This document shows positions 13,978 through 54,175 of a stretch of DNA of 59,811 nucleotides, piece after piece; position 1 is the stretch's first letter, and each line of letters begins with the position of its first letter. Position numbers and translations under genes: made by a program. Location of the stretch: assembly GCA_016194325.1 (NCBI GenBank), contig JACQBS010000026.1, forward strand, positions 1 to 59,811. Reading direction: 5' to 3'. Source of the DNA: Nitrospinota bacterium (GTDB taxonomy: Bacteria; Nitrospinota; Nitrospinia; UBA9942). The notes under the pieces were generated by a model, which saw only the letters and a program-made list of their open reading frames with translations, was not told where the DNA came from and did no database searches.

Positions 13978-16206
13978 TCATGCCGGCAGTTCAATTATAA
14001 AATTTGCACCTCTCGGCTGATTATCCTCAATTCTTATGATTCCACTATGGTCTACCACTATTCTATTTGCAATGGCAAGCCCCAGCCCTGACCCTTTTTT
14101 CTTTGTGGAAAAATATGGCAGGAACAGCTTATCCTTATTCTCATCAGGTATGCCTATACCATTATCCTTCACTTCAATCCTTACCGTTTTACCATCCTTT
14201 GTTAGAGATGTATCAATTTCTATAATCCCGTTACCATGCACTGCATCTATAGAATTTTCTATAAGATTTATGAATACCCGTTTGAACTGCTCATGGTCTA
14301 CATTTATTATATCTATTTTTGAATCATAGTTGGTTAAAAACTTTATCCCCTTCCTTATATCTTTGTAAAGGGCAAGCGTGTCATCTATAATGCGGTGGAG
14401 TTTGTAAGGCTTTGGATTAGGCTCAGGCATACGAGCGAACTTGGAAAATTCATCAATCAGCTTTTTAAGCCCCTCAACCTCTTGAATAATTACATTCGTG
14501 CTTTCATCAAATACCTCTATAAAATCTGGAGAACCCTCCTTAAACTTCTTTTTCAATCTCTGTGTATTCAACTGGATTGGCGTAAGGGGATTTTTTATTT
14601 CGTGTGCTATACCCCTTGCAACCTCCCGCCAGGCAGCGGTTTTCTGGGCCTTTATGAGTTCTGTCAGGTCATCAAATACTATTACTATGCCAAGGTATTT
14701 CCCCTCTGTATTTTTTAAGGCAGTTGCATTTACAAGGAGGGTAATTAATCTCCCTGATACCATAATCTGAATCTGGCCGTTTACACTCTCCCTTCTCGCC
14801 TCGTTCATGACTTTTATCATTGCCCTTACAGGGTCTAAATATGATGCATCAAATGCCTTTTTATACGGCTCTCCTTTAACCTTTTTCGCCTGAATATTTA
14901 ATATCTTTGATGCAGCTTCATTTATGGTAGAGACCCTCCCGTGGCTGTCAACGGAGATTACACCTGTGGCGATATTTTCCAATACAGTTTCCATGTAGCC
15001 CTTCCTCTGCTCCAGCTCGATGTTGGTCTCTTTTAATTCCTCATTTGCCTTTTCTATTGCAAGCTTCCCTTCTTTTAGATCAGAGGTCATCTGATTAAAT
15101 GATTCCACCAGCATTCCTATTTCATCATTTGCCTTGGCAGTAATTTTAAAATCTAAATTTCCCTCTGCTACCGACTTGGTTGCCTCAGCCAATTCCTTTA
15201 TTGGAACTGTTATACCCTTAGCCAGATAGAAACCAAACCATATTGCCGAGAATAGTATCAAAAGCGTAATAAGAAGAAGTGTTATCTCGTAGCTCAGTTT
15301 TATTGGATATTTGAGGAGTTTTAGCTGTTTGTATTCCTCAAAGGCATTCACAATATTCTCAATCTTACTAACCATATCCTTTGAAATGAACCAGGAGACA
15401 ACTGTTATGCCGGCTATATTCTGACTGCCGGCAGCAGACTGCTGAGAGATTTTTATAGGAGATACCCCGACTACGAGATTTTTTTTGTCTATCAATATAA
15501 TCTCCGATACATCTTCCCCGCTCAATGCCTTTTCAAGTAATGGGTTTAATTTTTCATTGAGTATCTTCTCTTTAAGGGCAGATTCTATGGATTCAGCAAC
15601 AAGATTTAGATTGCTGTCAAAGACAAGTATTCCGTCAACTTTGTAATCAACCCTCTTTTTAAGGACACTATTTTTAAGATACTGGAGATTTTCTTTATTG
15701 ACCATGTTCTTCTCTGAAATGAGTTCATTCAGCATGTTTGCATACAGGAGTATATTTTTTCCCGAGCCTGCATAATAACCCTCCGCGACATCTAAAGAAC
15801 CTTTCAGGGAGTTTTCTATCTGTTGATTGAACCAGTTATTTATACTGTTTGTAAGGAGTCCGCTGGCTACCAAAAACAGAAGAAGAGAGGGGACGAATGT
15901 AAGGACTGCAAATGACAAAACTAATTTTGTCCTGAACCTTGCACCGATAATTTTCCATTTTCTATCTAAATATAGTTTTACCAGATTTTTGCCTACTATC
16001 AGCACCAATACAGATAGGAGGATTATGTTTATATTGACAAGGAGCAGAACTGCAATATTGCTGGCAATCGGGGTTGATACATGAGACTGCTGTATATATA
16101 CTTCTACTGAAGTTAAGACAATAAGGAGCAGAAGGATACCGAATACTATCCAACGTGTTCTTTTCCTTTTTTTTCTGATGTATTCGTCAGAAAGACGGTA
16201 ATCCAT
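13978..16206 (-). CDS. ntrY: NtrY-family sensor histidine kinase (HAMP-PAS-HisKA-HATPase)
   Basis: Multi-TM N-terminus, HAMP 'DEIGMLVESFNQMT', H-box 'AHEIKNPLTPIQL', N-box 'NLIENSIDA', G-boxes 'DNGIG' and 'GSGLGL'. Confidence 0.88.
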   Translation of the reverse strand: MDYRLSDEYIRKKRKRTRWIVFGILLLLIVLTSVEVYIQQSHVSTPIASNIAVLLLVNINIILLSVLVLIVGKNLVKLYLDRKWKIIGARFRTKLVLSFAVLTFVPSLLLFLVASGLLTNSINNWFNQQIENSLKGSLDVAEGYYAGSGKNILLYANMLNELISEKNMVNKENLQYLKNSVLKKRVDYKVDGILVFDSNLNLVAESIESALKEKILNEKLNPLLEKALSGEDVSEIILIDKKNLVVGVSPIKISQQSAAGSQNIAGITVVSWFISKDMVSKIENIVNAFEEYKQLKLLKYPIKLSYEITLLLITLLILFSAIWFGFYLAKGITVPIKELAEATKSVAEGNLDFKITAKANDEIGMLVESFNQMTSDLKEGKLAIEKANEELKETNIELEQRKGYMETVLENIATGVISVDSHGRVSTINEAASKILNIQAKKVKGEPYKKAFDASYLDPVRAMIKVMNEARRESVNGQIQIMVSGRLITLLVNATALKNTEGKYLGIVIVFDDLTELIKAQKTAAWREVARGIAHEIKNPLTPIQLNTQRLKKKFKEGSPDFIEVFDESTNVIIQEVEGLKKLIDEFSKFARMPEPNPKPYKLHRIIDDTLALYKDIRKGIKFLTNYDSKIDIINVDHEQFKRVFINLIENSIDAVHGNGIIEIDTSLTKDGKTVRIEVKDNGIGIPDENKDKLFLPYFSTKKKGSGLGLAIANRIVVDHSGIIRIEDNQPRGANFIIELPA

Positions 16207-26917: not shown

Positions 26918-29143
26918 ATGAAAATTACAAATCAGGAAATATTAAAATTTATGCGGGAGTCTGTTTATCGTCCCCTTACAATGAAGGAATTGATAAAGAG
27001 TTTTAATATCCCTTCAGAGGAGAGAAGCTCCTTCAGGAGATTAATCAGGGGGCTGACAGGTGATGGAGAGATTATAAAGATAAAGGGAAATAGATTTGGA
27101 CTCCCCGAAAAGATGAATCTTGTTACAGGTGTTGTGCAGGGGCATCCTGACGGTTATGGATTTGTTATCCCTGAAGCCTGTAGTGACCCTGATCGGAGCG
27201 AAGGGGAATCTAACAGAGGAGAAGACCTATTTATAAATCCAAGAAATATGAGAGAGGTAATGCACGGTGATAAAGTTATCTGCAGGGCTGAACCAGCCCA
27301 AAAAGGCGGGAAGAGAGAGGGGAGGATTGTAAGAATATTAGAGAGAGGGCATAAGACATTAGTCGGTATATACGAGCCGAGTGGTCATTTTGGCTTTGTG
27401 ATACCTGATGACAGGAGGATAAGCCATGATATTTACATACCGCTTAAATATAGCGGAAAGGCTAAGATGGGGCATGCAGTCATAACAGAGATTACAGCCT
27501 ATCCAATGAAAAACAGAAACCCTGAAGGCAGGATAATAGAGATTATCGGTTATCCCGATAACCCCGATGTAGAGATAGATATTGTTCTGAGAAAATATGA
27601 TATACCCTCAAAATTTCCAATAGATGTTTTAAAAGAGGCAGATGCCGTTCAAAAAGAGGTTACAGATGATGAAATTATAGGAAGACTGGATTTAAGAGAT
27701 AAAAATATAGTTACCATAGACGGAGAAAAGGCAAAGGATTTTGATGATGCTGTAAATGTTGAGAGGCTTAATAATGGCAATTATATGTTAGGGGTCCATA
27801 TTGCCGATGTGAGTCATTATGTGAAAGAGGAAAATAACCTTGATAATGAGGCAGTTAAGAGGGGAACGAGTGTATATTTTCCTGACAGGGTAATCCCTAT
27901 GCTCCCCTTTCAACTCTCCAATGAGATATGCAGTCTAAAGCCAAATGTAGACAGGCTGACTCTGAGTGCATTTATGGAGTTTGACATGCAGGGAGAACTG
28001 ATAAATTATAGTTTTGCAGAGACAGTTATAAACAGCAAAGAGAGGATGACCTATACAGATGTGGCAGCAATACTGGAAGAGGGGCAAGGGGCAAGCCTGC
28101 CCCTGCAAGTAGTAAGCAGGGGGGGCAAGGGGCAAGGAGAAAATAAGGATTTAAAAGAAAGATATTCTTATCTCCTGAATGATTTTTATTTAATGAGGGA
28201 ATTGTGCGAGGTTTTGAGAGAAAGAAGAGTGAAAAAGGGGAGTATAGATTTTGACCTCCCTGAGCCTGATATAATCCTTGACCTGATGGGCAAACCTGAA
28301 AATATAATAAAGGCTGAAAGGAATATTGCCCATAAAATCATTGAGGAATTTATGCTCGTGGCGAATGAAACTGTAGCAACACACTTTACAAAACTTGAAA
28401 TACCTGCTCTTTACAGGGTGCATGATGAACCTGACCCGGCAAAAATAATAGAACTGAGTGAATTTGTATCAAATTTTGGTTATCATTTAAAAATAGATTC
28501 CCGCCTTCGCGGGAACAAGTTTCATCCAAAGAGATTTCAGGAACTGCTAAATAGTATCAGGGGGAAACCTGAAGAGCTGCTTATATCTACAATAACCTTA
28601 AGGCACATGAAACAGGCAAGGTATTCACCTGAAAATATCGGTCACTTTGGCCTTGCCTTTGAGAACTATACCCACTTTACATCTCCAATAAGGAGATACC
28701 CTGACTTAATCGTCCACAGACTCTTAAAAGAAATAATAAAAAAGAAACATATTCCAAAAAAGAGATTAGACTTATGGAAGGAGAAACTCCCTGAGATTGC
28801 CCGACACTCTTCAGAGAGAGAAAGGACGGCAGATGCGGCAGAAAATGATATTGTTGAATTAAAGAGGGTCCAGTTCATGGTGGATAAGATTGGTGAAGAG
28901 TATGAAGGGATTATATCAGGCGTAACCTCTTTTGGATTGTTTGTGGAACTGGAGGAGATATTTGTTGAAGGGCTTATCCATGTATCGGGTATGGCTGATG
29001 ATTACTATGCCTTAAATGAGAGAGACCATTCACTGACAGGAAGACGGACAAAGAAAAGATTCAAGATGGGAGATAGGGTAAAGGTAAAGATTGAAAATGT
29101 CAGTCTGGCAAAAAAACAGATTGATTTTAAATTGATTAAATGA
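26918..29143 (+). CDS. rnr: Ribonuclease R
   Basis: HTH plus cold-shock domains, RNB 'TIDGEKAKDFDDA', 'HFTSPIRRYPDL', C-terminal S1; start moved to ATG 26918. Confidence 0.97.
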   Translation: MKITNQEILKFMRESVYRPLTMKELIKSFNIPSEERSSFRRLIRGLTGDGEIIKIKGNRFGLPEKMNLVTGVVQGHPDGYGFVIPEACSDPDRSEGESNRGEDLFINPRNMREVMHGDKVICRAEPAQKGGKREGRIVRILERGHKTLVGIYEPSGHFGFVIPDDRRISHDIYIPLKYSGKAKMGHAVITEITAYPMKNRNPEGRIIEIIGYPDNPDVEIDIVLRKYDIPSKFPIDVLKEADAVQKEVTDDEIIGRLDLRDKNIVTIDGEKAKDFDDAVNVERLNNGNYMLGVHIADVSHYVKEENNLDNEAVKRGTSVYFPDRVIPMLPFQLSNEICSLKPNVDRLTLSAFMEFDMQGELINYSFAETVINSKERMTYTDVAAILEEGQGASLPLQVVSRGGKGQGENKDLKERYSYLLNDFYLMRELCEVLRERRVKKGSIDFDLPEPDIILDLMGKPENIIKAERNIAHKIIEEFMLVANETVATHFTKLEIPALYRVHDEPDPAKIIELSEFVSNFGYHLKIDSRLRGNKFHPKRFQELLNSIRGKPEELLISTITLRHMKQARYSPENIGHFGLAFENYTHFTSPIRRYPDLIVHRLLKEIIKKKHIPKKRLDLWKEKLPEIARHSSERERTADAAENDIVELKRVQFMVDKIGEEYEGIISGVTSFGLFVELEEIFVEGLIHVSGMADDYYALNERDHSLTGRRTKKRFKMGDRVKVKIENVSLAKKQIDFKLIK

Positions 29144-31022
29144 ACCCTTTTGTTATCTTTATCCTCCCTGTATCCTCAGCCGTCTTTTTTGTATTTTCAA
29201 TCCACTGCTGGTAAGTATAATTTTGTTTTTCTGTCAGCAGTCTGTTTGTAAATTCCTTTTCCTCTTCCTGAAATTTCTTTTCATCAATTCCCAATCTATC
29301 CTTGATATATACCAGAAAATAATTATCGTTCAGCTTGACCTTATTATAATCACCCTTTTTTGTATTAAAAACTGTCTGCACCAGATTTTCATCTCTCCCG
29401 ATGCTTGATGCTATCGTATTCCTTGTAACATATCCTGTAGTCCCCTTCATAGCCTTTAGTTCATCAGCTGCCTTCTTAAACTCCTTCCCCTTTTTCAAAT
29501 CTTCAAGAATCTTGCCTGCCTCAAGGTCAACGATTTTTTTTGCCTCCTCATCCCTATATGCCTTCTCCACCTCTCCCTTTATCTCTTCAAATTTAGGTAT
29601 GAATGCATCCTTTTTCTCTTTATATCTTAATATATAAAATTTTCCGCCATCCTCTAAAATCTCACTTACATCTCCCTTCTTTAATGCAAACGCAGCCTTA
29701 CTTAAGATAGGGTGTTCTCTATCATCTTTTTTAAAACCGCCTCCAGAAGCAGTAACATATTGTTTTCCTTTTATAACAGTATTAAAATCAGCACTCTTTA
29801 AATCTGTACCCTTTCTTATGCCGTCAAGTTCAGTCTTTGCAATATTTTTTGCGTCACCCTCTTTCAAAATCTTTACAATATCATCTCTTACCTCTGACAG
29901 TCCTTTTGTCCTCTCATCTTCAATCTTCTCAACCTTTATTATGTGGTAGCCGAACGGAGTCCTGACAGGCTCGCTCAGTTCCCCCTCTTTTAAGGCGAAT
30001 GCGGCGTCCTCAAATTGTTTTACCATCTGTCCCTTTGAAAAGAAGCCAAGGTCTCCACCTTTACCCTTATTGGGGTCATCAGAATATTTCTTTGCCAGTT
30101 CAGCAAAATCCCCGCCCCCCTTCAATTCCTGCAAGACCTTTACTGCCTTTGCCCGCCCCTCAACTTCTACCTTCTCATCTGCCTCAGGTGAAACAGCAAT
30201 GAGTATATGCATTGCCTTCACTCTCTTCGGAATTTTATATTCATTTATATGCCTGTTATAATATTCATTTACCCTGTTGTCCTCTATTTTAATATTAGCC
30301 TCAAAACCCTTTGAGTCTGCCGAGACATATTCAACAACCATCTCCTCCCCTCTTTGAAAAAGGGATTTATTATTATTATAAAATTCTTCTATTTTGTCTG
30401 GAGCAAATGTTACCCTGTTTATAAAATTGGAAGGGCTCAATATAAGATAGTCAACATCCACCTTTTCATTTGCACGGGCATAGGCATCCTTCACCTCTTT
30501 TTTTGAAATCTTCACACCATCCTTAATCAGATTTTCTATCTTTTTTATCAGGAGGTCTTCCCTCACCGCATCTTCAAAACCGCCTGGGTTCATCCTGTTT
30601 GTCTGAAGTATTCTTATATATAAATCCTTATCAAACCTGCCATCCTTTTTAAATACATCCATCCCCTGAATTTCATCAATAACCTCTTCATCTATTACAA
30701 CCAGACCCTCCTTTTTAGCAATGGATAACTGCAGCTTTCTTGTTATAAGGGAATCTATTGCAGCCTTTTTTACAATAGGGGCGAACAGTTCTTCATTCAA
30801 ATTCCCCTGCTGTTTCTTATAAAAATCTAATATCCTCTTATAAAATTCCTGATATTCAGTGTATATTATTTTCTTGCCGTCAACTGTGGCAACAACGGCT
30901 GCCGATGTCTCCTTCCCCATACCCCATACTAAAAACATCGTGCCGACAAATGATGCAACCACTGTCCACAGCATAATTTTTATAAACCACGATTTTGCAT
31001 AATCTCTCATGAACTGAAGCAT
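29136..31022 (-). CDS. ppiD: PpiD/SurA-type periplasmic peptidyl-prolyl isomerase chaperone
   Basis: 'MLQFMRDYAKSW' N-terminal anchor, SurA-N domain, parvulin 'HILI...FAELAKKYSDD...GGDLGFF...PFGYHII'. Confidence 0.85.
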   Translation of the reverse strand: MLQFMRDYAKSWFIKIMLWTVVASFVGTMFLVWGMGKETSAAVVATVDGKKIIYTEYQEFYKRILDFYKKQQGNLNEELFAPIVKKAAIDSLITRKLQLSIAKKEGLVVIDEEVIDEIQGMDVFKKDGRFDKDLYIRILQTNRMNPGGFEDAVREDLLIKKIENLIKDGVKISKKEVKDAYARANEKVDVDYLILSPSNFINRVTFAPDKIEEFYNNNKSLFQRGEEMVVEYVSADSKGFEANIKIEDNRVNEYYNRHINEYKIPKRVKAMHILIAVSPEADEKVEVEGRAKAVKVLQELKGGGDFAELAKKYSDDPNKGKGGDLGFFSKGQMVKQFEDAAFALKEGELSEPVRTPFGYHIIKVEKIEDERTKGLSEVRDDIVKILKEGDAKNIAKTELDGIRKGTDLKSADFNTVIKGKQYVTASGGGFKKDDREHPILSKAAFALKKGDVSEILEDGGKFYILRYKEKKDAFIPKFEEIKGEVEKAYRDEEAKKIVDLEAGKILEDLKKGKEFKKAADELKAMKGTTGYVTRNTIASSIGRDENLVQTVFNTKKGDYNKVKLNDNYFLVYIKDRLGIDEKKFQEEEKEFTNRLLTEKQNYTYQQWIENTKKTAEDTGRIKITKGFI

Positions 31023-31138: not shown

Positions 31139-32434
31139 TTATAATGCTACATCAAACCCGACTGTAATCTTACTCCCATCTATACTCTTCTGTTCACCGC
31201 CGACGGTGTATTTGTCTTTATATTTATTATCCTGAAAATCCCACAGGGATTTAAAAGTTATCCGTGCATTCTGGGTGACATACCATGCGCCCTCAACTGC
31301 AAAATCAGCGTTTTTATTTGAATCTGTCCCGCCATCTTTTTCTGTGAGTGTCTCATAAATTGCACCGAATTGAAAAGATTCACTAAGGCGTAAAAGCCCC
31401 TCCATCATAAAACCGGTTGATTCCCTTTTTGTCCCGATTCCTGTTGATGAAACATCGCTCTGGGATACGGTGTCATAAAGAAAATCTAAGTCAAATCTCT
31501 GTGATGAATACCTGATACCCGCCACCCATTCTCCCACATCATTCCTGTATTTTCTATTACCTGTTGTCCCTCCAAATCCCTGAGGATTGGCGAAGTATCT
31601 GACAGAGGCAGCAACTGCCCCAAAATCCCCCCTCAACATCCCTGTATAGGCGGTGTTTGGGTCATTATCATTATCGGCACTTCCGCCATTACCCTGATTT
31701 ACGGCGAGCTCATAGGTAAAATAACCAAACCCGGGACGTCCGTAAAGACTAATTCCAAGGTCATTACTGCCTGCCCTGCCTGTATTGTATCCTGAGCTTG
31801 CCGAAGGATTGTTTCCGCTGCTCCAGTTCATAGGCATCGGGATAAGAGACTTGCCGCTTATAACCCGCCTTGTGCTGTGGACAGCATCAAGGTCAGAACT
31901 CATAAGCGAGCCAAATCTGATATTAAAATTACCAGGGCCCCATATATTATGAAAACCTAAAAACATTGAGTCGGTTATGCGGCCTGTAATCTTATCCTGC
32001 GATGACCCTTGAGGAAGTTCAAACCAGTAAGAAACATTTTTTGTAAGTGTCCCCCCTCCAATAATATTGCCAGCCATTTCACCGGATGAGAGCAGCCCCC
32101 CCGCCTGTTCATTCTCACCAGCAGTTGTATGTGTTGTCCTGCTTAAATAGGTTCTGCCCTCTAATCTCAGGCTAAACGGCGGGAATGTAGCAGGGTTATC
32201 CAATGGTAGGTCTTCGGCAATCTTTATCTTGCCTGCCTCTCCCCCGCTTTCTGTATCAGGCAGTTGATAGCCATTGAGCATATAATTAAATCCAAACTCA
32301 TTCAGCCTTGGCCAAGTGGAATGGCAGAGCATACAGGCGATCTCATGTTTTCTAGCAAACCCCGGTTGCGCATCTGCAGGTTTATATGCCACCGCAATAA
32401 ATGATATACCGATGAAAATAATTAATAAAAGCAT
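31139..32434 (-). CDS. Cyc2-like fused monoheme cytochrome c / outer-membrane beta-barrel
   Basis: Signal peptide, then 'PGFARKHEIACMLCHSTWPRLNEFG...NGY' (single CxxCH) and alternating beta-strand patterns. Start is uncertain (32434 or 32491) because repeats overlap it. Confidence 0.7.
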   Translation of the reverse strand: MLLLIIFIGISFIAVAYKPADAQPGFARKHEIACMLCHSTWPRLNEFGFNYMLNGYQLPDTESGGEAGKIKIAEDLPLDNPATFPPFSLRLEGRTYLSRTTHTTAGENEQAGGLLSSGEMAGNIIGGGTLTKNVSYWFELPQGSSQDKITGRITDSMFLGFHNIWGPGNFNIRFGSLMSSDLDAVHSTRRVISGKSLIPMPMNWSSGNNPSASSGYNTGRAGSNDLGISLYGRPGFGYFTYELAVNQGNGGSADNDNDPNTAYTGMLRGDFGAVAASVRYFANPQGFGGTTGNRKYRNDVGEWVAGIRYSSQRFDLDFLYDTVSQSDVSSTGIGTKRESTGFMMEGLLRLSESFQFGAIYETLTEKDGGTDSNKNADFAVEGAWYVTQNARITFKSLWDFQDNKYKDKYTVGGEQKSIDGSKITVGFDVAL

Positions 32435-32491
32435 CCTGAGCTTGTCGAAGGATGCATGGTTCGACTTTTCGACAAGCTCAAAGCTCACCAT
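32432..32491. repeat. CCTGAGCTTGTCGAAGG / TTCGACAAGCTCA-family hairpin repeats
   Basis: CATCCTGAGCTTGTCGAAGGATG followed by TGGTTCGACTTTTCGACAAGCTCAAAGCTCACCAT. Confidence 0.8.
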
Positions 32492-32513: not shown

Positions 32514-32792
32514 TTACTTTCTCGACTTTGAGTATTCAATCAATTTCTCCCATTCGCCATTAATTAAAGCCTCTTTCTTCTTTCTTGTCCATCCTTTTAT
32601 TTGCCTTTCCCTGAGAAATGCGTCATGAATTGTTGGCATTTCACAATAATAAACCAATTTTACAGGCAATCTCTTTGCTGTATAGCCATCAAACATTTTA
32701 GTGTTATGTTCAGCTAATCGTTTTTCTAAATTTTTAGCAGAGCCAGTATAGTATGACCCGTCAGCACATTTCAATATGTATAACCATGTCAT
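32514..32792 (-). CDS. GIY-YIG nuclease (YhbQ/UPF0213-like)
   Basis: 'WLYILKCADGSYYTGS...RLAEHN...YT..RLPVKLVY...RERQIKGWTRKKKEALI'; start moved to ATG 32792. Confidence 0.92.
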   Translation of the reverse strand: MTWLYILKCADGSYYTGSAKNLEKRLAEHNTKMFDGYTAKRLPVKLVYYCEMPTIHDAFLRERQIKGWTRKKKEALINGEWEKLIEYSKSRK

Positions 32793-32800
32793 TATTATTG

Positions 32801-32823
32801 CATCCTGAGCTTGTCGAAGGATC
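32801..32823. repeat. CCTGAGCTTGTCGAAGG-family repeat upstream of the GIY-YIG gene
   Basis: CATCCTGAGCTTGTCGAAGGATC, matching the copy at 32432. Confidence 0.8.
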
Positions 32824-33685
32824 ACTCCTTCTCCATATTCATCTCAAGTTCTGTTTTTTGTCCTTTCCTTATAGATACCTTTTCCTTTTTCTCCTTAAAG
32901 CTCTCAAGCTTTACAGTTACATCATATATACCTGATTCAATATCAACACTCAGCGGCGATAGTCCAAAGTATATGTCGCCAATATATATCTTGGAGCGGG
33001 GAGGCTCTGTCTTTATGGAAATTCTCCCTGCCCCTTCAGGAATTGGTGTTTCTTCTGCAGATGCAGTCCCTGCCTTTCCAAAATTTTTATTTATCTCTAT
33101 AATTGTTTTATTAATAACCTTTGCAAGTGTCTTTGAGATATATGAATTGATTGTCTTCTTGGAATTACCAGAGACCCCTGCAAACCTATCTTCTTTTTCT
33201 GTTATTACACCCTCCCATATGCCCTTCCCTGTTTTACCTGATATTAACCTGCTTTCAATCTCAATTTCTATTTCGTCTCTTCCCTTTATATCAAGCCTGA
33301 ATTTTTTTATCTCCCCGCTCATTATTATATCCGCCTGACCTCCCCCCTCTCCTCCTTCTAAAGGAGGGGATGAAGGGATGGTAACAATAAAACCGGCAGA
33401 AGTTAGATGTGTCTTAATAGCTTCATTAACAGATATAGCAACATCCTTTTCCAAAATAATTTTATCGGCATGCATATCAGTAACAGTTGACTCAATTTTT
33501 CCAACATAGTTTGGGGCGACATCTCCCCTTGAATCAATATATGGTTTAAGGATGATGGTTAGGGGTTTAGTGGCTTTTGATGTATCAGGGATTTGTCCGG
33601 GCTTATAGTTAAGCTTAACCGCCCCTGAACAGCCTGTTATAAATAGGAATAGTAAGAAAGGAAGGGAATAGCGGGTTATTGTCAT
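32822..33685 (-). CDS. Lipoprotein with a C-terminal PEGA domain
   Basis: Lipobox 'ITGC'; C-terminal 'ISIKTEPPRSKIYIGDIYFGLSPL...GIYDVTVKLESF' PEGA pattern. Confidence 0.8.
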   Translation of the reverse strand: MTITRYSLPFLLFLFITGCSGAVKLNYKPGQIPDTSKATKPLTIILKPYIDSRGDVAPNYVGKIESTVTDMHADKIILEKDVAISVNEAIKTHLTSAGFIVTIPSSPPLEGGEGGGQADIIMSGEIKKFRLDIKGRDEIEIEIESRLISGKTGKGIWEGVITEKEDRFAGVSGNSKKTINSYISKTLAKVINKTIIEINKNFGKAGTASAEETPIPEGAGRISIKTEPPRSKIYIGDIYFGLSPLSVDIESGIYDVTVKLESFKEKKEKVSIRKGQKTELEMNMEKE

Positions 33686-34059
33686 TTTATCTTCTCAATA
33701 AATGATCCTGCTGATTTAAGGGCTGCCTTTACCATATCTACATCCTCTAACAATCCTCTATAGTATCCAGCTATATGCAATTCCTTATAGAGGGCTTCAA
33801 AATTTCTAATAATCTTGCCGTTATGAACCGACAGATGTTTCTTTAGCATCTCTCTGTAACCATCTATGGATTTAGGTAATTTTTTTTCACCTACTCCTCG
33901 TTTTATGAGATATTCATCTATGGCTATCAACACAGAAAGATAGGCAGTAGAACAAGCCTCACGGACAAACTTAATATCTCTGTACCTATTCTCCTCAATT
34001 CCTGACTTACTCAGGATTTCTTTTGCATTTTCCAAATATCTTAAAGCCTCTTTTGACAT
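33682..34059 (-). CDS. DUF5618-like (HEPN-fold) small protein
   Basis: 'EALRYLENAKEIL...TAYLSVLIAIDEYL...LHIAGYYRG'; clear paralog of 35686-36090. Confidence 0.7.
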   Translation of the reverse strand: MSKEALRYLENAKEILSKSGIEENRYRDIKFVREACSTAYLSVLIAIDEYLIKRGVGEKKLPKSIDGYREMLKKHLSVHNGKIIRNFEALYKELHIAGYYRGLLEDVDMVKAALKSAGSFIEKIK

Positions 34060-34094
34060 AGTCAAATAATACACCAGATTTTTACTTTTTCAAA

Positions 34095-34135
34095 ATAAAA
34101 AAAGGGGAGGGTTTTAAACCCTCCCCTTTTTATTT
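34095..34135. terminator. Rho-independent terminator downstream of cyc2
   Basis: AAAAAAAGGGGAGGG-TTTTAAA-CCCTCCCCTTTTT: GC stem with T-runs on both strands. Confidence 0.85.
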
Positions 34136-34185: not shown

Positions 34186-35409
34186 TTAGAATGCGGAGAA
34201 GACCATCAGTGTTGTTTTCTGGTCAGAACCATATGCTGTCTTCTGGTTTACATCGCCGCTCATTGTTGCATAATCTAACTGCACCTTAACATTCTGGGCT
34301 ATCTTATATATAAGGGCAATATCCATGCGGTTTTCACCGGCACTGGATGCAGCTCCATTTTTACCCATAAGATAACTCAATGCTACAGATGCCTTGTTCG
34401 GAATAATACCAAGATTTGCAGCTATAGATGTTGCATTTTTGTCTGCACCAGATGCTGCGATGGCATATGTCTTACCATCGGTCCCTGCCTTAGGTACTGT
34501 CGCATAGGTCAGATAGACTCCCAGAGGCATACCACCAATCTCACCTTGTGCCTGTGCATCAATGGCAGTTCCCTGAACTACATAAGTTGCAGAAGTTGCT
34601 TCACCCAATTTTGTCTCACCGCCCCAATACTGAACACCTATTGCTGTATCAAAGCCGCCAAGATTAGGTGTTACTGCTGCACGGATATACTGTGCGAGAT
34701 TGAGACCCGAAGAAATCGCATCGGAATGACTTGGACCCCATAGTGAGGCATTTACAAAGAACATATCACTGGCGCCATAGAGAACAATACCTGTGGCTGC
34801 AGTACCGCTAAGACCCGTATACTGCTGTGCTGAGGTATCTATACCTTCACCAATAGGTTTATGTATCTTTATTGCACCTGTGTTTAAAACCTCAAACCCA
34901 TAGCCCGCTCCCTGATCTGCTGTTGTAAAAGCACCTGCTGCCAGAGTGGTCCCGCCCATATCAAATGGGAATATTAATTTAAAATTATCAAAACCTCCAG
35001 TCTCCTTTAAGCCTCTCTCAAGTAAAAATCCAACATGCTCTCCACCACGACCCCCAGCCATTAATGATGCCTCATCAGGAACCTGTATTTGACCCCTGTC
35101 TGTCCCGGCCTTAGTATCACCATTTGTCTGCTGGTACCTTGCTTTAACTATAAGAGACATATTAAGGACATTTGGAATTGATAAGTCATCATCCTTAATC
35201 TGGCCCTGCTCGCCAATCTGTGTATAACCGCTTGCCTTAAATGCCCTGCCAAAAGAATTTAAGCTTGGAAAAGCCTGGAAATGGCATGTATTACAGGCAT
35301 GACCTGTCTGCCTTGAAAATGCTGGAATTGCCTGTGCATCCTGCGTAATTATAAATGAACCTACGAAGGATAAGGCTACTGCTAATGTTATTACTAATAT
35401 CTTCTTCAT
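34186..35409 (-). CDS. cyc2: Cyc2 cytochrome-porin fusion, Cluster 1-like (putative outer-membrane Fe(II) oxidase)
   Basis: Signal peptide ending AQA; 'IPAFSRQTGHACNTCHFQAFPSLNSFGRAFKASGY'; 'PDEASLMAGGRGGEHVGFLLE'; beta-barrel ending in Phe. Confidence 0.85.
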   Translation of the reverse strand: MKKILVITLAVALSFVGSFIITQDAQAIPAFSRQTGHACNTCHFQAFPSLNSFGRAFKASGYTQIGEQGQIKDDDLSIPNVLNMSLIVKARYQQTNGDTKAGTDRGQIQVPDEASLMAGGRGGEHVGFLLERGLKETGGFDNFKLIFPFDMGGTTLAAGAFTTADQGAGYGFEVLNTGAIKIHKPIGEGIDTSAQQYTGLSGTAATGIVLYGASDMFFVNASLWGPSHSDAISSGLNLAQYIRAAVTPNLGGFDTAIGVQYWGGETKLGEATSATYVVQGTAIDAQAQGEIGGMPLGVYLTYATVPKAGTDGKTYAIAASGADKNATSIAANLGIIPNKASVALSYLMGKNGAASSAGENRMDIALIYKIAQNVKVQLDYATMSGDVNQKTAYGSDQKTTLMVFSAF

Positions 35410-35531
35410 CTTTTACCTCCTCAAATTTAAAAACTAAAAAAATATAAACTCCATTACTTATGTGTAAAATCCTAAAAACCTACTTACCACCACCTCCTTT
35501 CTTATTTAAAAATTTACTGTGTACTTAATTT

Positions 35532-35631
35532 AGATTCTTCCCCTTCCCCTTCACTTTGTTCAGGGTCAGGGTCAGAATGACACTTCTGCTATTGCTTGTC
35601 ATTCTGAAGGAGCAAAGCGACTGAAGAATCT
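35532..35631. repeat. GTCATTCTG...GAAGAATCT-family palindromic element with a nested CCCTTCACTTTGTTCAGGG unit
   Basis: Ends AGATTCTTC/GAAGAATCT; inner CAGAATGAC/GTCATTCTG. Confidence 0.75.
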
Positions 35632-35685
35632 CAACATTAAATTATGTGAATAAATATCATACCCTCTTTACTTTGTCAAGGTTTT

Positions 35686-36090
35686 TTAATGTTCAATCTT
35701 CTCAATAAATATCCTTGCAGCTTTTATGGCATCTTTCACCATATCTACATTATAGATAAGCCCTCTATAATATCCTGCTATATGCAGGGTATCATAAAGC
35801 ATTTCAAATTCTCTCATAAGTTTTCCATTGCGAATTGCCAGATGCCTTTTCAATGCCTCTCTATAGGCATCTACCGATCCTTCGGCTTCGCTCAGGACAG
35901 GTTTAGGAAGTTCTTTTTTTATTAAGCCATGTTTAGTAATAAGGTACTCGTTTATTGCTTCTAAAATAGCAAGATAGGCTGTCCCAAAAGCCTCTCTTAC
36001 TGGCTTTACATCTGTATAGACATTTTCCTCTATAGGGATTTTTTTGAGTATCTCCTTTGCATTGTTTAAATATCTAATAGATTCCCTCAT
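35686..36090 (-). CDS. DUF5618-like small protein (second paralog, with an 8-aa repeat-derived insert)
   Basis: 'ESIRYLNNAKEIL...LHIAGYYRG'; carries PVLSEAEG, which the 33682 paralog lacks. Confidence 0.7.
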   Translation of the reverse strand: MRESIRYLNNAKEILKKIPIEENVYTDVKPVREAFGTAYLAILEAINEYLITKHGLIKKELPKPVLSEAEGSVDAYREALKRHLAIRNGKLMREFEMLYDTLHIAGYYRGLIYNVDMVKDAIKAARIFIEKIEH

Positions 36091-46012: not shown

Positions 46013-46371
46013 TGGTGGAGGTGGCGGGAATCGAACCCGCGTCCGAAAATGCTCAACTGAAAGCATACTACATGCTTATCCTCTGTTTTAAAGTCTCGTT
46101 GCTCTCAACTCCCTGAGGCAGGATTCTTGAGCAACCAGCCTGATTAGTCTCGCCCCACACCCTCAGACATGATGTGCAGCCAGCCTGTATTTATAACATC
46201 CTTTTTCCATCCTACAGACAAAGACAGAGAGGATGCCGGCTGTTAATTAAGCAGCCAGTGCATATTCATAAGTGTTTGCACTTATGAGTTTCCATCAGGA
46301 TTTACGAGGTCAATGGATCCCTCGGCATGCAGCTTTAGTATCACTATTCCCGTCGAGACCAGGTCACCCCC
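46013..46371 (-). ncRNA. ssrA: tmRNA
   Basis: 5' GGGGGTGACCTGGTCTCGACGGG; 3' GGACGCGGGTTCGATTCCCGCCACCTCCACCA; tag ORF 46279-46247 encodes (A)ANTYEYALAA*. Confidence 0.95.
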
Positions 46372-50309: not shown

Positions 50310-50735
50310 ATGTTTATACTTGATATTAAAAAACTAAAAGACTTATTCAAGGATTACCCCTATATTGCCTCAGCATATCTCTTTGGCTCTTATGTCTCGG
50401 GCAGGATAAGCCCTATGAGCGATGTGGATATAGCGGTATTATTAAAAGAGTCTTATCCAAAGGGGAGATACCTGATACATCAGATGGATTATCTTGCTGT
50501 TAAAATAGAGGAAGTCCTGAAAAAAGAGGTTGATCTTGTAGAAATGAACAGGCAGGGGCTTATCTTTCAGTATAATGTATTAAGAACAGGGAAACTGATT
50601 TACGATGCAGACCCCTCATTCAGAGTCAACTATGTGAGCCGTCTAATCTCCACATATTGTGATTTTGAGCCGACACTAAGATTTATGAATAACTATTACT
50701 TTGACGGCTACAGGAGGAGACTTGCAAGACTATGA
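50310..50735 (+). CDS. MntA-type minimal nucleotidyltransferase antitoxin
   Basis: 'YLFGSYVSGRISPMSDVDIAV' GSx10DxD motif and 'VDLVEMN'. Confidence 0.88.
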   Translation: MFILDIKKLKDLFKDYPYIASAYLFGSYVSGRISPMSDVDIAVLLKESYPKGRYLIHQMDYLAVKIEEVLKKEVDLVEMNRQGLIFQYNVLRTGKLIYDADPSFRVNYVSRLISTYCDFEPTLRFMNNYYFDGYRRRLARL

Positions 50736-51154
50736 AGAAAGAAGATATTCAGACAAAGATTGATGTCATATTTAATAACCTTGAGAAACTAAAAATTTTC
50801 TCCTCAAAGAGCTATGAAGATTTTATCTCTGACTTTAGGAATATAGACTCCGCCCTTTATAGATTGCAGACCTCGATACAGGCACTTCTTGATATTGGCA
50901 GCTATATTATCGCCTCTCTCGGTTTAAGAACTCCAAATACGAATGCAGAAATTATAGATATATTAAACGAGGCAGGATATATTCCCAAAGACAAAATAGA
51001 AAAATATAAAAAGATGAGCCAGTGCAGAAACAGAATAGTGCATCTTTATAATCACATAGATACAGAGATGCTTTACGATATTCTGATGAATGAATTGGAT
51101 GATATAAAAGAATTTTACGCAAGCCTGCTAAATATTATTGAGCAGCATGAATAA
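50732..51154 (+). CDS. HepT/DUF86 HEPN toxin
   Basis: 'LQTSIQALLDIG' and RNxxxHxY motif 'RNRIVHLY'. Confidence 0.88.
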   Translation: MKKEDIQTKIDVIFNNLEKLKIFSSKSYEDFISDFRNIDSALYRLQTSIQALLDIGSYIIASLGLRTPNTNAEIIDILNEAGYIPKDKIEKYKKMSQCRNRIVHLYNHIDTEMLYDILMNELDDIKEFYASLLNIIEQHE

Positions 51155-51210: not shown

Positions 51211-51765
51211 TCAGGATAAGGGTTTTAAATCCCTTGCCCTTTCAAAACCTATCTGGAGCGCCTTTTTATTTAATTCGAGGAATGCAGGGGGAACCCTTGA
51301 CAGGACTGCCTTTTCGATAGCATCGTGAGACACAATTTTGGTTAATTCTACAATCATGCCGAGGGAGATGATGTTTGCAACTATTATCTTTCCGAGCTCA
51401 TCTCTGGCAACAGTTGATATTGGAAAACTGTATACTTTATAGTCTCCCTTTGGAATATTTTTTACCTCTGTTGAATCAATGAGCAGGACACCATCTTTTT
51501 TAATATCCTTATTATATTTATTGCATGCCTCCTGTGTCATGGCAAGCATTGCATCAATACTCGTTGCCTTTGGATAATCTATCTCCTCATCACTTATTAT
51601 AACCTCACTCCTTGAGGCGCCTCCCCTTGACTCAGGGCCATAAGACTGGCTCTGGGATGCCATTTTACCATCATAGATAGAGGCAGCTTCTGCTATAATA
51701 ATACCTGCCAAAATCATCCCCTGCCCGCCTGAGCCGCTGAATCTCATCTCATATCTGTAACCCAT
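51211..51765 (-). CDS. korC: 2-oxoglutarate:ferredoxin oxidoreductase gamma subunit
   Basis: 'SGSGGQGMILAG', 'QSYGPESRGGAS'. Confidence 0.88.
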   Translation of the reverse strand: MGYRYEMRFSGSGGQGMILAGIIIAEAASIYDGKMASQSQSYGPESRGGASRSEVIISDEEIDYPKATSIDAMLAMTQEACNKYNKDIKKDGVLLIDSTEVKNIPKGDYKVYSFPISTVARDELGKIIVANIISLGMIVELTKIVSHDAIEKAVLSRVPPAFLELNKKALQIGFERARDLKPLS

Positions 51766-51789
51766 ACTCCCTCCCCTTTTTTATCATAA

Positions 51790-51842
51790 AGGTTAAGGTC
51801 AAGGTTAAGAAAGCACTAAATCTCAACCTAAGCCTGAACCTT
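51790..51842. repeat. AGGTT(A/G)-hexamer inverted-repeat element
   Basis: AGGTTAAGGTCAAGGTTAAG ... CTCAACCTAAGCCTGAACCT between korB and korC. Confidence 0.75.
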
Positions 51843-51847
51843 TATTT

Positions 51848-52717
51848 TTACTTTGGTTTGCTTCCTCCTGCCTTTTCCACAAGTTTAGCATACTCGGCAG
51901 TATATTCTGGTCTCTCCTTATTATATAAGACACCTCTTAATAGCTTTCCTTCAAGCTTCTCCAGCGGGAGGCTGTCTGCCTGTTTAACAGATACAGTCCC
52001 CTCCTTCTCTATCTTTTCCATCATATCTGCCGCAGATTTGTATTTATTGAATCTGCCATAGTATGTTGGGCAGGAGTCAAGTATATCTATAACGGCAGTC
52101 CCTTTGTGCATAATTGCCTCATAAAGAATCTTCTCAAGCTCGCCGTAATGGTATGCAGTCCCCCTTGCAACAAATGTAGCACCGGCAGCCTCAGCCATCT
52201 TGCAGACATCAAAAGGAGGGTCAATATTCCCATAACGGCTTGTTGTTGCTATCATCCCCGGTAAAGTGGTCGGCGAGAACTGGCCGCTTGTCATACCGTA
52301 TATAAAGTTATTATAAACCATGATGACTATATCAAGATTTCGCCTGCAGGTATGAATGAAGTGGTTCCCTCCGATTGCAAGTGCATCTCCATCCCCTGTT
52401 GTAACAATAACTTTTAGGTTAGGCTTTGCCATCTTAAGCCCTGTTGCAAAGGCAAGCGCCCTCCCATGCAAGGTATGAAGGGTATTGAAATTTACATAGC
52501 CAGGTGTCCTGCTTGAGCATCCTATTCCTGAGACCAATGCAAAATCATCATTGGGACGGCCAGTTGTTGCAATTGCCCTCAAAAGGGATTTTAAAACTAT
52601 GCCGTGCCCGCATCCAGGACACCATATATGAGGAAGCTTTCCCTTCCTTATATAATTTGAATAATCAAATGGCACCGGTTTTTCTTTCTTTTTCTTTTTT
52701 ACTGCTACTGTTTCCAT
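51848..52717 (-). CDS. korB: 2-oxoglutarate:ferredoxin oxidoreductase beta subunit
   Basis: 'WCPGCG', 'SGIGCSSR', 'LHGRAL', 'GDGD', 'YGMTSGQFSPTT'. Confidence 0.9.
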   Translation of the reverse strand: METVAVKKKKKEKPVPFDYSNYIRKGKLPHIWCPGCGHGIVLKSLLRAIATTGRPNDDFALVSGIGCSSRTPGYVNFNTLHTLHGRALAFATGLKMAKPNLKVIVTTGDGDALAIGGNHFIHTCRRNLDIVIMVYNNFIYGMTSGQFSPTTLPGMIATTSRYGNIDPPFDVCKMAEAAGATFVARGTAYHYGELEKILYEAIMHKGTAVIDILDSCPTYYGRFNKYKSAADMMEKIEKEGTVSVKQADSLPLEKLEGKLLRGVLYNKERPEYTAEYAKLVEKAGGSKPK

Positions 52718-52729
52718 ATTAGCCTCCAT

Positions 52730-53866
52730 TTATGTAAACTTTTTTATCTCTTCTATAATCTGATTTGGATGTATTGCCTCTGTGTCCACCTTAAAGATTC
52801 CCTTTACTTCACACTGCCCCTTTGATGCCCTCTCTACTTCATAATAGACCTGTCCAAGATTCATTTCAGGGACAAGAATTGCCTTTACCTGTTTTGCTAA
52901 TTTATTGACTGCCTTATCAGGAAAGGGCCATATAGTTTTTGGCCTCAGAAGCCCCGCCTTTACCCCTTTTTTCCTCATCTCTTTTACTGCAAACTTTGCC
53001 GATTTTGAGGATACGCCATAGGCAACTACACCTATCTCTGCATCATCAGTGTAGAACTCTTCATTTGCACATATCTTATCTGCATTCTTATTTATCTTAT
53101 TTACAATCCTCTCGTTAGCCTCGCCTATAAGCTTTGTATTATTTGTCGGGAAGCCGTCCTCTGCATGGTATAAGCCTGTTACATGAAATTTATAACCCTC
53201 ACCGTATGCAGCAAGCGGCGCAATACTGCCATTACTCTGTGCATAGGGTTTATACTCCTCAGGCTTGCATGTCGGCTTCTTCCTCTCTATAACCTCTATC
53301 TCACCCGGTTCAGGGAGTGCAATTGCCTCTCTCATATGCCCTATAATTTCATCATATAGGACAATAACTGGCGTCCTATATGTTTCAGCAAGATTAAATG
53401 CCCTTACTGTTTCGTAAAAAATCTCCTGAACTGTTGCAGGTGTTAAGACCACCGACGGATGGTCGCCATGTGTCCCCCACTTTGCCTGCATAACATCAGA
53501 CTGGCTCGGTCCTGTCGGGAAACCGGTAGAGGGTCCACTTCTCATTACATTAACAATCACACATGGGATCTCTGCTATACAGGCAAAACCGAGCCCCTCC
53601 TGCATCAGGGAAAAACCAGGACCGCTTGTAGCTGTCAATGACTTTGCCCCGCCAAGCGAGGCACCGATGATAGCACAGACTGAGGCAATCTCATCCTCCA
53701 TCTGCATAAAGACCCCGCCTATCTTTGGAAGCCTTACGGAAAGCATCTCCGCAACCTCTGTTGAAGGAGTTATAGGATAACCAGCATAGAACATGCAGCC
53801 TGCATATAATGCACCCTCACTGCATGCCTCATTACCCTGCATAAATTTTTTCTTTTTATCAGCCAT
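52730..53866 (-). CDS. korA: 2-oxoglutarate:ferredoxin oxidoreductase alpha subunit
   Basis: 'GYPITPSTE', 'QMEDEIAS', 'TSGPGFSLM', 'MRSGPSTG'. Confidence 0.9.
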   Translation of the reverse strand: MADKKKKFMQGNEACSEGALYAGCMFYAGYPITPSTEVAEMLSVRLPKIGGVFMQMEDEIASVCAIIGASLGGAKSLTATSGPGFSLMQEGLGFACIAEIPCVIVNVMRSGPSTGFPTGPSQSDVMQAKWGTHGDHPSVVLTPATVQEIFYETVRAFNLAETYRTPVIVLYDEIIGHMREAIALPEPGEIEVIERKKPTCKPEEYKPYAQSNGSIAPLAAYGEGYKFHVTGLYHAEDGFPTNNTKLIGEANERIVNKINKNADKICANEEFYTDDAEIGVVAYGVSSKSAKFAVKEMRKKGVKAGLLRPKTIWPFPDKAVNKLAKQVKAILVPEMNLGQVYYEVERASKGQCEVKGIFKVDTEAIHPNQIIEEIKKFT

Positions 53867-53888
53867 AATTACCTCCAAAAATTAGTTC

Positions 53889-53950
53889 CAAGTTGCAGGT
53901 TTCAAGTTTCAAACTTTACAACTTGTATCTTGCATCTTGCAACTTGCATC
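53889..53950. repeat. CAAG(T)T/CTTG-heptamer inverted-repeat element
   Basis: CAAGTTGCAGGTTTCAAGTTTCAA ... CTTGTATCTTGCATCTTGCAACTTGCATC between korD and korA. Confidence 0.65.
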
Positions 53951-54157
53951 TCAGAACACTTGTATTGCAAAATCAGGACATCTTAAATCACATAACTGAC
54001 AGCGAGTGCATGCCTCAAGATTTTTTACTGTCATCATATTCCCTTTAAGCTCAAGAACTTCAGTGGGGCAAAAGACTGCACATATATCACATCCTTTACA
54101 AAGCTCTTCATATATTAAAATTCTTGGTAAATCCTTTTCTGTCTCTGTAGTAGTCAA
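53951..54157 (-). CDS. korD: 2x[4Fe-4S] ferredoxin, oxidoreductase delta subunit
   Basis: 'CKGCDICAVFCP' and 'CTRCQLCDLRCPDFAI'. Confidence 0.9.
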   Translation of the reverse strand: MTTTETEKDLPRILIYEELCKGCDICAVFCPTEVLELKGNMMTVKNLEACTRCQLCDLRCPDFAIQVF

Positions 54158-54175
54158 TTAATATCCCTCCTCTCG

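Follow-up and report, generated by a model that had tools for sequence, protein, structure and literature searches.

A Cluster-1-type Cyc2 cytochrome-porin in a Nitrospinota-like lineage, with a conserved PEGA-domain lipoprotein neighbour and a second Cyc2-like gene

Cyc2, a monohaem cytochrome fused to an outer-membrane porin, is the main genetic marker for inferring microbial iron oxidation at neutral pH from metagenomes. The stretch of DNA analysed here, called the window, is 59,811 nucleotides (59.8 kb) of contig JACQBS010000026.1 from a Nitrospinota metagenome-assembled genome (MAG; GCA_016194325.1). On its minus strand lies cyc2A, whose product has the domain architecture, the signature and the predicted fold of this family and groups with Cluster 1, the cluster whose function is backed by biochemistry and Fe(II)-responsive expression (PMC8406198, PMC8114936). 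By analogy with those relatives, Cyc2A is probably exported, carries one covalent haem, forms a 16-strand outer-membrane barrel, oxidises Fe(II) and passes the electron to periplasmic carriers encoded elsewhere. A Cluster-1-type copy in a Nitrospinota-like groundwater lineage adds incremental evidence for such a capacity beyond Proteobacteria and Chlorobi. The gene-cluster context is a more interesting lead than the presence of Cyc2A in an already reported host phylum: the neighbourhood encodes a conserved PEGA-domain lipoprotein and a second, very different Cyc2-like protein, Cyc2B, both of which the original prediction had overlooked. The elements of cyc2A are the following.

34186..35409, minus strand: cyc2A, Cluster-1-type Cyc2, a fused monohaem cytochrome-porin of 407 residues (open reading frame (ORF) call, homologues, AlphaFold2 (AF2) model, hidden Markov model (HMM))
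35329..35409, minus strand: signal peptide, residues 1-27, predicted cleavage between AQA and IP (heuristic sequence reading)
35260..35331, minus strand: cytochrome signature AIPAFSRQT-GHA-CNTCH-FQAF-PSL, residues 27-50 (motif match)
35281-35295, minus strand: haem motif CNTCH, residues 39-43 (motif match)
34192..35163, minus strand: predicted 16-strand beta-barrel porin domain, residues 83-406 (DSSP of the AF2 model, Foldseek)
35416..35422, minus strand: Shine-Dalgarno sequence GAGGAGG, 6 nt 5' of the cyc2A ATG (sequence read)
35441..35468, minus strand: promoter-like TTTACA-16-TATATT 5' of cyc2A (consensus scan, 10 of 12 matches; a pattern match only, with no evidence of function)
34099..34131, minus strand: intrinsic-terminator-like hairpin directly 3' of cyc2A, with a 15-bp stem (7 GC pairs) and a T-run (sequence scan); being palindromic, it also reads as a plus-strand terminator

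What marks Cyc2A as a Cyc2? Keffer et al. (2021, PMC8406198) describe the family by a signal peptide, a single haem, a length of at least 365 residues and a 16-strand barrel like that of OprO/OprP, together with two diagnostic motifs, AXPXFAR[Q/K][T/Y] upstream of CXXCH and PXL four residues after it. Every one of these features that a sequence or a model can address is found in Cyc2A. Its N-terminus, MKKILVITLAVALSFVGSFIITQDAQA followed by IPAF, reads heuristically as a KK n-region, an 18-residue hydrophobic core and an A-x-A cleavage site; the AF2 model has a helix at residues 2-20 and then a linker, with a predicted local distance difference test score (pLDDT) below 50 for residues 17-27, and the pattern A-x-A followed by [VI]PAF is kept across the homologues. 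The single CXXCH, CNTCH, contains the only two cysteines of the protein, C39 and C42. Upstream of it, A27-I-P-A-F-S-R-Q-T35 fits the first motif at 8 of 9 positions, with Ser for Ala at motif position 6, a substitution shared with Gallionella (YSRQT) and other family members; the spacing between this motif and the first Cys is 3 residues in the whole retrieved family, against 5 in the published consensus. Downstream, H43-FQAF-P48-S-L50 supplies the second motif, with P48 invariant and L50 at least 90% conserved. The C-terminus (...MVFSAF) ends in a Phe that is at least 90% conserved among homologues. The signal peptide, single CNTCH, PAFSRQTG motif, barrel, terminal Phe, ribosome-binding site and terminator that the original prediction had read from this gene are thus all in place, at the coordinates above and on the minus strand.

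Conservation around the haem motif is strict. In an alignment of 53 sequences with a mean identity of 33%, residues A27, R33, C39, C42, H43, P48, N51, G54 and F57 are invariant, and all 119 full-length homologues contain exactly one CXXCH, set within A-x-P-x-F-A-R-Q-T-G-x-x-CxxCH-x4-P-x-L-N. With the motif unchanged across such divergent homologues, the haem site is under strong purifying selection. Two positions near it vary by clade: at residues 37 (35299-35301) and 46 (35272-35274) most members have M37 and H46 (CHFQHFP), and the clade of the window has H37 with S or A46, Cyc2A itself having H37 and A46. This may represent a swapped arrangement of haem ligands. Could such features arise by chance? 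CXXCH alone occurs in five long ORFs of the window, the full signature in Cyc2A and one further ORF only, and the profile-search matches of Cyc2A have E-values of 1e-127 to 1e-262; on both counts its features lie far beyond chance. The CXXCH of an HNH protein (59282-59617) and those of two shadow ORFs were considered as cytochromes and rejected as chance or zinc-finger-type occurrences.

The predicted fold agrees with the sequence. The AF2 model, built on the 53-sequence alignment, has a pLDDT of 87.6 and a predicted TM-score (pTM) of 0.84, and consists of a small helical N-terminal domain followed by 16 long strands, joined according to DSSP by short turns alternating with long loops, among them a long L3-like loop at residues 164-204. 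Foldseek against the PDB gives the highest query TM-scores (TMq) for OprP (2O4V, E 1.2e-10, TMq 0.52) and OprO (4RJW, E 1.2e-9, TMq 0.53); the other matches include the general 16-strand porins OmpT, OmpF, OmpC and PorB. A length of 407 residues and a modelled barrel of the OprO/OprP type are what a Cyc2 is expected to have.

To which part of the family does Cyc2A belong? Searches of Pfam, NCBIfam and PDB sequences returned nothing, which is uninformative as no curated Cyc2 model exists. A large protein collection gave 230 homologues, nearly all annotated ‘hypothetical’ and each with one CXXCH set in the Cyc2 signature, and a scan of one genome per GTDB species gave 556 loci encoding relatives; locus and neighbourhood counts in this work cover the best 80 of these 556 plus two syntenic relatives of the window, L081 and L082. 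The best 80 of the 556 are 37-48% identical to Cyc2A (tblastn best segment) and include Gallionella, Gallionellaceae, Sideroxyarcus, Chlorobiaceae, Ca. Lambdaproteobacteria, Thiobacillus and Hydrogenophilales, as well as Thiodiazotropha, tubeworm symbionts, many ‘Deltaproteobacteria’, ‘Nitrospirae’ and Nitrospinota groundwater MAGs. The size of the family is shown by an exhaustive profile search, which returned 300 clusters (50% identity) with a cut-off of E<=1e-30 and 4,241 with one of E<=1e-3; the top 150 listed were close family members only, with no outgroup among them. Over the full length, Cyc2A is 38-46% identical to the Cyc2 of Gallionellaceae and Chlorobiaceae, with Lambdaproteobacteria in the same range; published identity between Cyc2 clusters is 6-16% (PMC10654088). 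An HMM made from 10 Gallionellaceae and Chlorobiaceae sequences matches it with 415 bits (E 9e-127, HMM positions 1-386, residues 27-407), and one made from Gallionellaceae alone does so end to end with 375 bits. In a neighbour-joining tree Cyc2A falls in a clade with other Nitrospinota-labelled sequences (100% support), sister (70%) to a second Nitrospinota/groundwater group. When the tree is rooted on the family of the in-window paralogue Cyc2B, a distance method with a distant outgroup, 48 of 60 bootstraps put Cyc2A inside the clade that descends from the last common ancestor of the Gallionellaceae and Chlorobiaceae sequences. Every Gallionellaceae iron oxidiser that has cyc2 possesses a Cluster 1 version, and these are close to the biochemically verified protein (PMC10734462). 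Because Cyc2A matches the HMM of these two groups and lies inside their common clade, its assignment as a Cluster-1-type Cyc2 is well supported with them as proxies, and the original call of a fused cytochrome-porin grouping with Cluster 1 holds up. A ‘Zeta-like’ clade (P0102-P0118) was tried as a Zetaproteobacteria anchor and rejected, its sequences coming from groundwater or unlabelled assemblies.

Among the closest known counterparts by published description is Cyc2-PV1 of Mariprofundus ferrooxydans PV-1, a Cluster 1 protein with demonstrated Fe(II) oxidation (PMC8406198). Both share a signal peptide, a single CXXCH, the AxPxFAR[Q/K][T/Y] and PxL motifs, a length of about 400-450 residues and a 16-strand barrel with OprO/OprP as structural matches; Cyc2A differs by the Ser in its FAR motif and by a host that is a Nitrospinota-like MAG rather than a zetaproteobacterium. 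Cyc2 from Gallionella and Sideroxyarcus MAGs is 41-46% identical over the full length, and Gallionella Cyc2 has in common with Cyc2A the variant [FY]SRQTG..C..CHFQSFP.LN. Compared with the Cluster 1 Cyc2 of Gallionellaceae (Gallionella, Sideroxydans, Sideroxyarcus; PMC10734462), Cyc2A stands in the separate, fully supported Nitrospinota-specific subclade. Cluster 1 Cyc2 in uncultured non-proteobacteria has a precedent in Ca. Ferristratum (DTB120) and in Nitrospinota/DTB120 MAGs from the Southwest Indian Ridge, where function was inferred by phylogeny and, for Ferristratum, also from Fe(II)-responsive transcription (PMC8114936, PMC9769843); those MAGs are marine hydrothermal, the relatives of the window come from continental groundwater, and the likeness drawn here is one of lineage and cluster. 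The Cluster 2 proteins (from Acidithiobacillus ferrooxidans) and those of Cluster 3 (Cyt572 of Leptospirillum) follow the same fused monohaem cytochrome-porin idea, with an inter-cluster identity well below that of Cyc2A to the Cluster 1 groups (see above). The cyc2 gene of A. ferrooxidans is the first of the rus operon (cyc2-cyc1-cup-cox-rus), and the window contains nothing comparable. MtoAB, PioAB and MtrCAB are also outer-membrane conduits for iron redox chemistry, built as 26-strand barrels around separate decahaem cytochromes (PMC8406198), whereas in Cyc2A one haem motif is joined to a 16-strand barrel; multihaem genes are absent from the window.

How would Cyc2A work? After export by the Sec route, a c-type cytochrome domain of about 40 residues with one haem would stand fused to a 16-strand porin in the outer membrane. 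In analogy to M. ferrooxydans PV-1 and Gallionellaceae, the haem, positioned in the barrel or at it, would oxidise dissolved Fe(II) and leave Fe(III) outside the cell; periplasmic carriers would relay the electron to a terminal oxidase or nitrate reductase whose genes would lie elsewhere. What is said here of haem loading, location, substrate, electron-flow direction and energy coupling is carried over from the biochemistry and the expression studies of Cluster 1. Each Cyc2 assayed biochemically, one per cluster, oxidises Fe(II) (PMC8406198), and the Cluster 1 cyc2 of Ca. Ferristratum, a non-proteobacterial anaerobe, rises within minutes of Fe(II) addition (PMC8114936). Some observations weigh against Fe(II) oxidation by Cyc2A. 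The backbone of the neighbour-joining tree has support of just 15-20%, and both tree and HMM were made without Zetaproteobacteria, Cluster 2 or Cluster 3 references, which is why the cluster assignment runs through proxies. The subclade directly around Cyc2A, composed of ‘Deltaproteobacteria’/Thermodesulfobacteriota, ‘Nitrospirae’ and Nitrospinota groundwater MAGs, includes zero demonstrated iron oxidisers. Inspection of the alignment found no Met or second His column conserved family-wide as a distal haem ligand. The 59.8-kb window holds no gene for a soluble c-type cytochrome, a Cyc1-like protein, an oxidase, a nitrate reductase, a bc1 complex or alternative complex III, or for the ccm/ccs systems. 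Finally, Keffer et al. caution that Cyc2 may have other functions (PMC8406198).

Part of this list feeds the most serious alternative, namely that Cyc2A is a genuine Cyc2 conduit with another role: electron transfer either way across the outer membrane (uptake from extracellular minerals or humics, or Fe(III) reduction), or detoxification of Fe(II) without energy conservation. The nearest subclades are mostly typically anaerobic lineages (Thermodesulfobacteriota, ‘Deltaproteobacteria’, Thermodesulfovibrionia) and also sulfur-oxidising symbionts (Thiodiazotropha, tubeworm) that are not known iron oxidisers; neither an oxidase nor a partner cytochrome is encoded in the window, and Mto/Mtr homologues are thought to be bidirectional (PMC10734462). 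This role is possible, if rather unlikely, given the uniform outcome of the assays across clusters and the rapid Fe(II) response in Ferristratum just described; moreover, a monohaem porin fits poorly with contact to solid Fe(III) minerals (PMC8406198). Far less probable is a plain diffusion porin in which the N-terminal CXXCH is a relic or carries no haem, and the ‘cytochrome’ serves structure without redox function: the modelled barrel is as close to OmpT, OmpF, OmpC and PorB as to OprO/P and a conserved distal ligand was not found, but C39, C42, H43 and the flanking motif would hardly stay invariant at this level of divergence, nor would every full-length homologue keep exactly one CXXCH. 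Fe(II) oxidation thus stays the preferred function. Genes for an Fe(II)-oxidation pathway near cyc2A are supporting context and not a defining feature of the protein family, and the suggested search for Cyc1, periplasmic cytochromes, terminal oxidases and nitrate reductase came out empty within the window. The original statement that the window lacks a periplasmic partner cytochrome is correct for soluble cytochromes; it missed the second fused cytochrome-porin-like gene. In L081, a small c-type cytochrome (Cytochrome_CBB3 domain) is encoded about 9 kb away, so the lineage does make c-type cytochromes.

Is the gene at home in this genome? The closest homologues of Cyc2A, at 76-87% identity, come from NCBI ‘Nitrospinota bacterium’ MAGs and unlabelled assemblies, with no Proteobacteria among them. 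The order aspS - cyc2A - PEGA gene - cyc2B - surA-like - rnr is common to three independent assemblies, L081 (GCA_016234205.1, NCBI), L082 (a Logan contig) and L087 (a 102-kb JGI contig), and housekeeping proteins of the window are 84-96% identical to those of L081. The members of the block downstream of cyc2A are these.

32822..33685, minus strand: PEGA-domain outer-membrane lipoprotein of 287 residues, lipobox LFITGC with Cys19 (Pfam PEGA at residues 220-286)
31139..32491, minus strand: cyc2B, divergent Cyc2-like cytochrome-porin (signature, BLASTP, hhalign)
29136..31022, minus strand: SurA-like periplasmic chaperone/PPIase, last gene of the conserved block (Pfam SurA_N_3 and Rotamase; syntenic in L081, L082 and L087)

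The synteny in three independent assemblies shows that cyc2A is resident, neither a recent insertion nor a chimera: it is a stable, vertically inherited part of the conserved envelope block aspS - cyc2A - PEGA - cyc2B - surA-like. A foreign cyc2A, acquired recently from a proteobacterial iron oxidiser or joined by an assembly or binning error, is scarcely credible, since the local G+C content of 0.44-0.45 (0.39 for the window), the variable small genes on its flanks (two DUF5618 genes and a GIY-YIG gene) and the known frequency of horizontal Cyc2 transfer (PMC12442345) are outweighed by the shared gene order across NCBI, Logan and JGI assemblies, by closest homologues that all come from Nitrospinota-labelled MAGs, by a signal-peptide region as similar to the L087 orthologue (93%) as the flanking genes are, and by a rise in G+C that is modest, fits an Ala/Gly-rich barrel and recurs in cyc2B. 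An ancient transfer of cyc2A into the lineage and allele exchange within it are likely, and Cyc2 is scattered through Nitrospirae and Delta-, Mu- and Lambdaproteobacteria with pervasive transfer (PMC12442345). As for the host, the original prediction saw it as non-proteobacterial, which is right, the nearest syntenic relatives being Nitrospinota MAGs, and as unexpected, which it is not, Cluster I Cyc2 having already been reported in Nitrospinota and DTB120 MAGs (PMC9769843) and Cluster 1 members being on record from DTB120, ‘Nitrospirae’, ‘Deltaproteobacteria’ and Lambdaproteobacteria (PMC8114936, PMC12442345). The window encodes LpxC, a SurA-like chaperone and MotAB; the LpxC and SurA-like proteins mark the cell as a diderm with an outer membrane. 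Genes for the alpha, beta and gamma subunits of a 2-oxoacid:ferredoxin oxidoreductase adjoin those for the alpha and beta subunits of succinyl-CoA synthetase (sucCD) at 51211-57109 (minus strand), an arrangement consistent with a reductive tricarboxylic acid cycle in an autotrophic Nitrospinota-like host.

The first neighbour of interest is the PEGA-domain lipoprotein. Among the 74 loci with enough downstream sequence, 30 have a homologue on the same strand at most 600 bp downstream of cyc2, and 6 more have one within 5 kb. These loci span several phyla and are phylogenetically non-independent. The pairing occurs in 21 of 25 ‘Delta’/Thermodesulfobacteriota loci and in none of the Gallionellaceae, Chlorobiaceae or Thiodiazotropha-type loci; for Gallionellaceae this means 0 of 5. 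Other branches have other neighbours: in the gammaproteobacterial/symbiont clade, 16 loci have a gene for a different PEGA-domain lipoprotein next to cyc2 but on the other strand, accompanied by one for a dihaem c4-type cytochrome, and in Chlorobiaceae and Rhodocyclaceae a small monohaem cytochrome is encoded nearby. A full-text literature search returned no description of the cyc2-PEGA pairing, within the limits of the literature searched.

What could such a lipoprotein do next to a barrel? Its AF2 model (pLDDT 83.5) has an N-terminal domain that resembles the DUF330/PqiC, PelC, CsgG and FlgT fold (Foldseek E 2e-8 to 1e-5), with target TM-scores of up to 0.76 against XCC0632 (DUF330) and of 0.6-0.66 against PelC and PqiC. 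These fold relatives are lipoproteins of the outer membrane that assemble into rings at its periplasmic side, where PelC and PqiC lie below a barrel or channel. The window protein shares with PelC, PqiC, CsgG and FlgT the lipidated N-terminal Cys; it is 8-15% identical to them and, unlike them, carries a PEGA beta-sandwich at its C-terminus. That it partners Cyc2, physically or functionally, is a hypothesis; the lipoprotein is a testable candidate for a Cyc2 accessory factor, one that could explain why heterologous expression of Cyc2 is difficult.

Then comes cyc2B, 1.6 kb downstream of cyc2A. The longest ORF reaches a TTG at 32539, but translation probably begins at an ATG, either that at 32491 or that at 32434. 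Its product has a hydrophobic N-terminal segment, just two Cys and the haem motif CMLCH (32321-32335) within the signature AQPGFARKH-EIA-CMLCH-STW-PRL-NEFG, a motif kept in its family of 15 proteins, nearly all from Nitrospinota-type sources. As in Cyc2A, a signal peptide, one CXXCH and the AXPXFAR[Q/K][T/Y] motif are present; PRL comes 3 residues after CXXCH, compared with the 4 of the Cyc2 description. How close are the two? BLASTP aligns them at 33% identity over 85 residues (E 2e-9), the cytochrome domain only, and hhalign of the two families gives a probability of 99.1% (E 4.7e-19) over 141 columns that cover the cytochrome domain and the first strands. The Gallionellaceae/Chlorobiaceae HMM scores Cyc2B at 23.6 bits, and a PDB profile search with the Cyc2B family returned no match. 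A barrel is suggested by an outer-membrane-protein-like composition and by a beta-amphipathic periodicity about 2 standard deviations above shuffled sequences, as in Cyc2A. The likeliest analogues of Cyc2B, which shares with Cyc2A only the cytochrome domain and first strands, are the Cyc2 proteins of Clusters 2 and 3. The gene is present in L081, L082 and L087. In an unrelated assembly (GCA_036704645.1, locus L083, 1060-4141), two Cluster-1-like cyc2 genes stand in tandem, so tandem copies are not unique to the lineage of the window. Two very different Cyc2 types side by side offer a natural system for asking what the Cyc2 clusters do.

Taken further, these neighbours suggest a broader proposal, tentative and somewhat unlikely as a whole. 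In a large branch of Cluster 1, which includes ‘Delta’/Thermodesulfobacteriota, Nitrospirae/Nitrospinota, Hydrogenophilales and others, Cyc2 would be half of a two-gene outer-membrane module whose other half, a dedicated PEGA lipoprotein with the PelC/PqiC-like fold, docks under or beside the barrel. The lipoprotein may act in assembly of the barrel, in gating, or in the hand-off of electrons to periplasmic carriers. In the Nitrospinota lineage Cyc2B would be added to this pair, possibly in contact with Cyc2A, and the surface loops of Cyc2A would be diversifying rapidly or be exchanged between strains. If true, the proposal would revise the picture of Cyc2 as a single streamlined protein and would supply a new marker pair for function prediction.

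The loops deserve a closer look. Compared with L087, where the cyc2A orthologue occupies 10001-11278, flanking proteins are 82-91% identical, Cyc2B is 87% identical, the PEGA protein 69% and Cyc2A 50%. This divergence is unevenly spread along the protein: identity is 93% in the signal peptide, 74% in the cytochrome domain, 75% in the periplasmic turns, 52% in the strands and 33% in the predicted extracellular loops, the orientation of the loops following porin convention. At the nucleotide level, cyc2A is 82% identical over the first 150 nt, 51-57% over much of the barrel and 66-70% in two stretches, the fall setting in after about the first 150-300 nt. Two causes would account for this pattern: recombination that swapped the part of the gene encoding the barrel, or strong diversification on the outward side of the protein. 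Such a hypervariable surface among near-identical genomes hints at selection acting on what is exposed, for example by phage, predation or contact with minerals, or at an exchange of cassettes, and it has a bearing on the ‘low clade fidelity’ reported for iron oxidation.

Small genes around cyc2A are variable too.

33682..34074, minus strand: DUF5618 gene ‘a’, between cyc2A and the PEGA gene (Pfam DUF5618, E 1e-37; not at this site in relatives)
35686..36090, minus strand: DUF5618 gene ‘b’, upstream of cyc2A (sharing 60% protein identity with ‘a’; found in L081, not in L082 or L087)
32514..32825, minus strand: GIY-YIG nuclease-domain gene, between the PEGA gene and cyc2B (Pfam GIY-YIG; only in the window and L082)

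At the site of ‘a’, L081 and L087 have a coiled-coil ORF of 82-86 residues instead. The two DUF5618 genes and the GIY-YIG gene are independent presence/absence polymorphisms among close relatives, a pattern that resembles small selfish or addiction-type genes. The DUF5618 pair was considered as the marker of a mobile cassette, which found no support, the copies being 60% identical and independently present or absent. A repetitive extragenic palindromic (REP)-like element, CCTGAGCGAAGC(C)GAAGG, lies in frame within ‘b’ (35866-35907, minus strand), where it adds the peptide PVLSEAEGS, and occurs again at about 21840 (minus strand) in the intergenic region at 20.8-22.3 kb. A related hairpin-forming element, GTCATTCTGAAGGAGCAAAGCGACTGAAGAATC, is found at 35560-35640 in the 276-nt spacer upstream of cyc2A.

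Elsewhere in the window, an ORF of 751 residues (11639-13894, minus strand) joins a sigma-54-dependent response regulator (receiver and AAA+ domains, residues 1-383) to a complete LpxC domain (residues 468-735) with no stop between them, which makes it a genuine fusion or else two adjacent genes that happen to share a frame; a gene for an NtrY-like histidine kinase (13978-16206) adjoins it. Toxin-antitoxin-type pairs, Phd/YefM with PIN and nucleotidyltransferase with HepT, lie in the regions 377-1110 (plus strand), 50310-51154 (plus strand) and 58151-59190 (minus strand), and a further nucleotidyltransferase gene and an HNH endonuclease gene are located near the end of the window. A transfer-messenger RNA gene at 46013-46371 (minus strand) encodes the tag peptide ANTYEYALAA (ARAGORN; Rfam RF00023, 207 bits).

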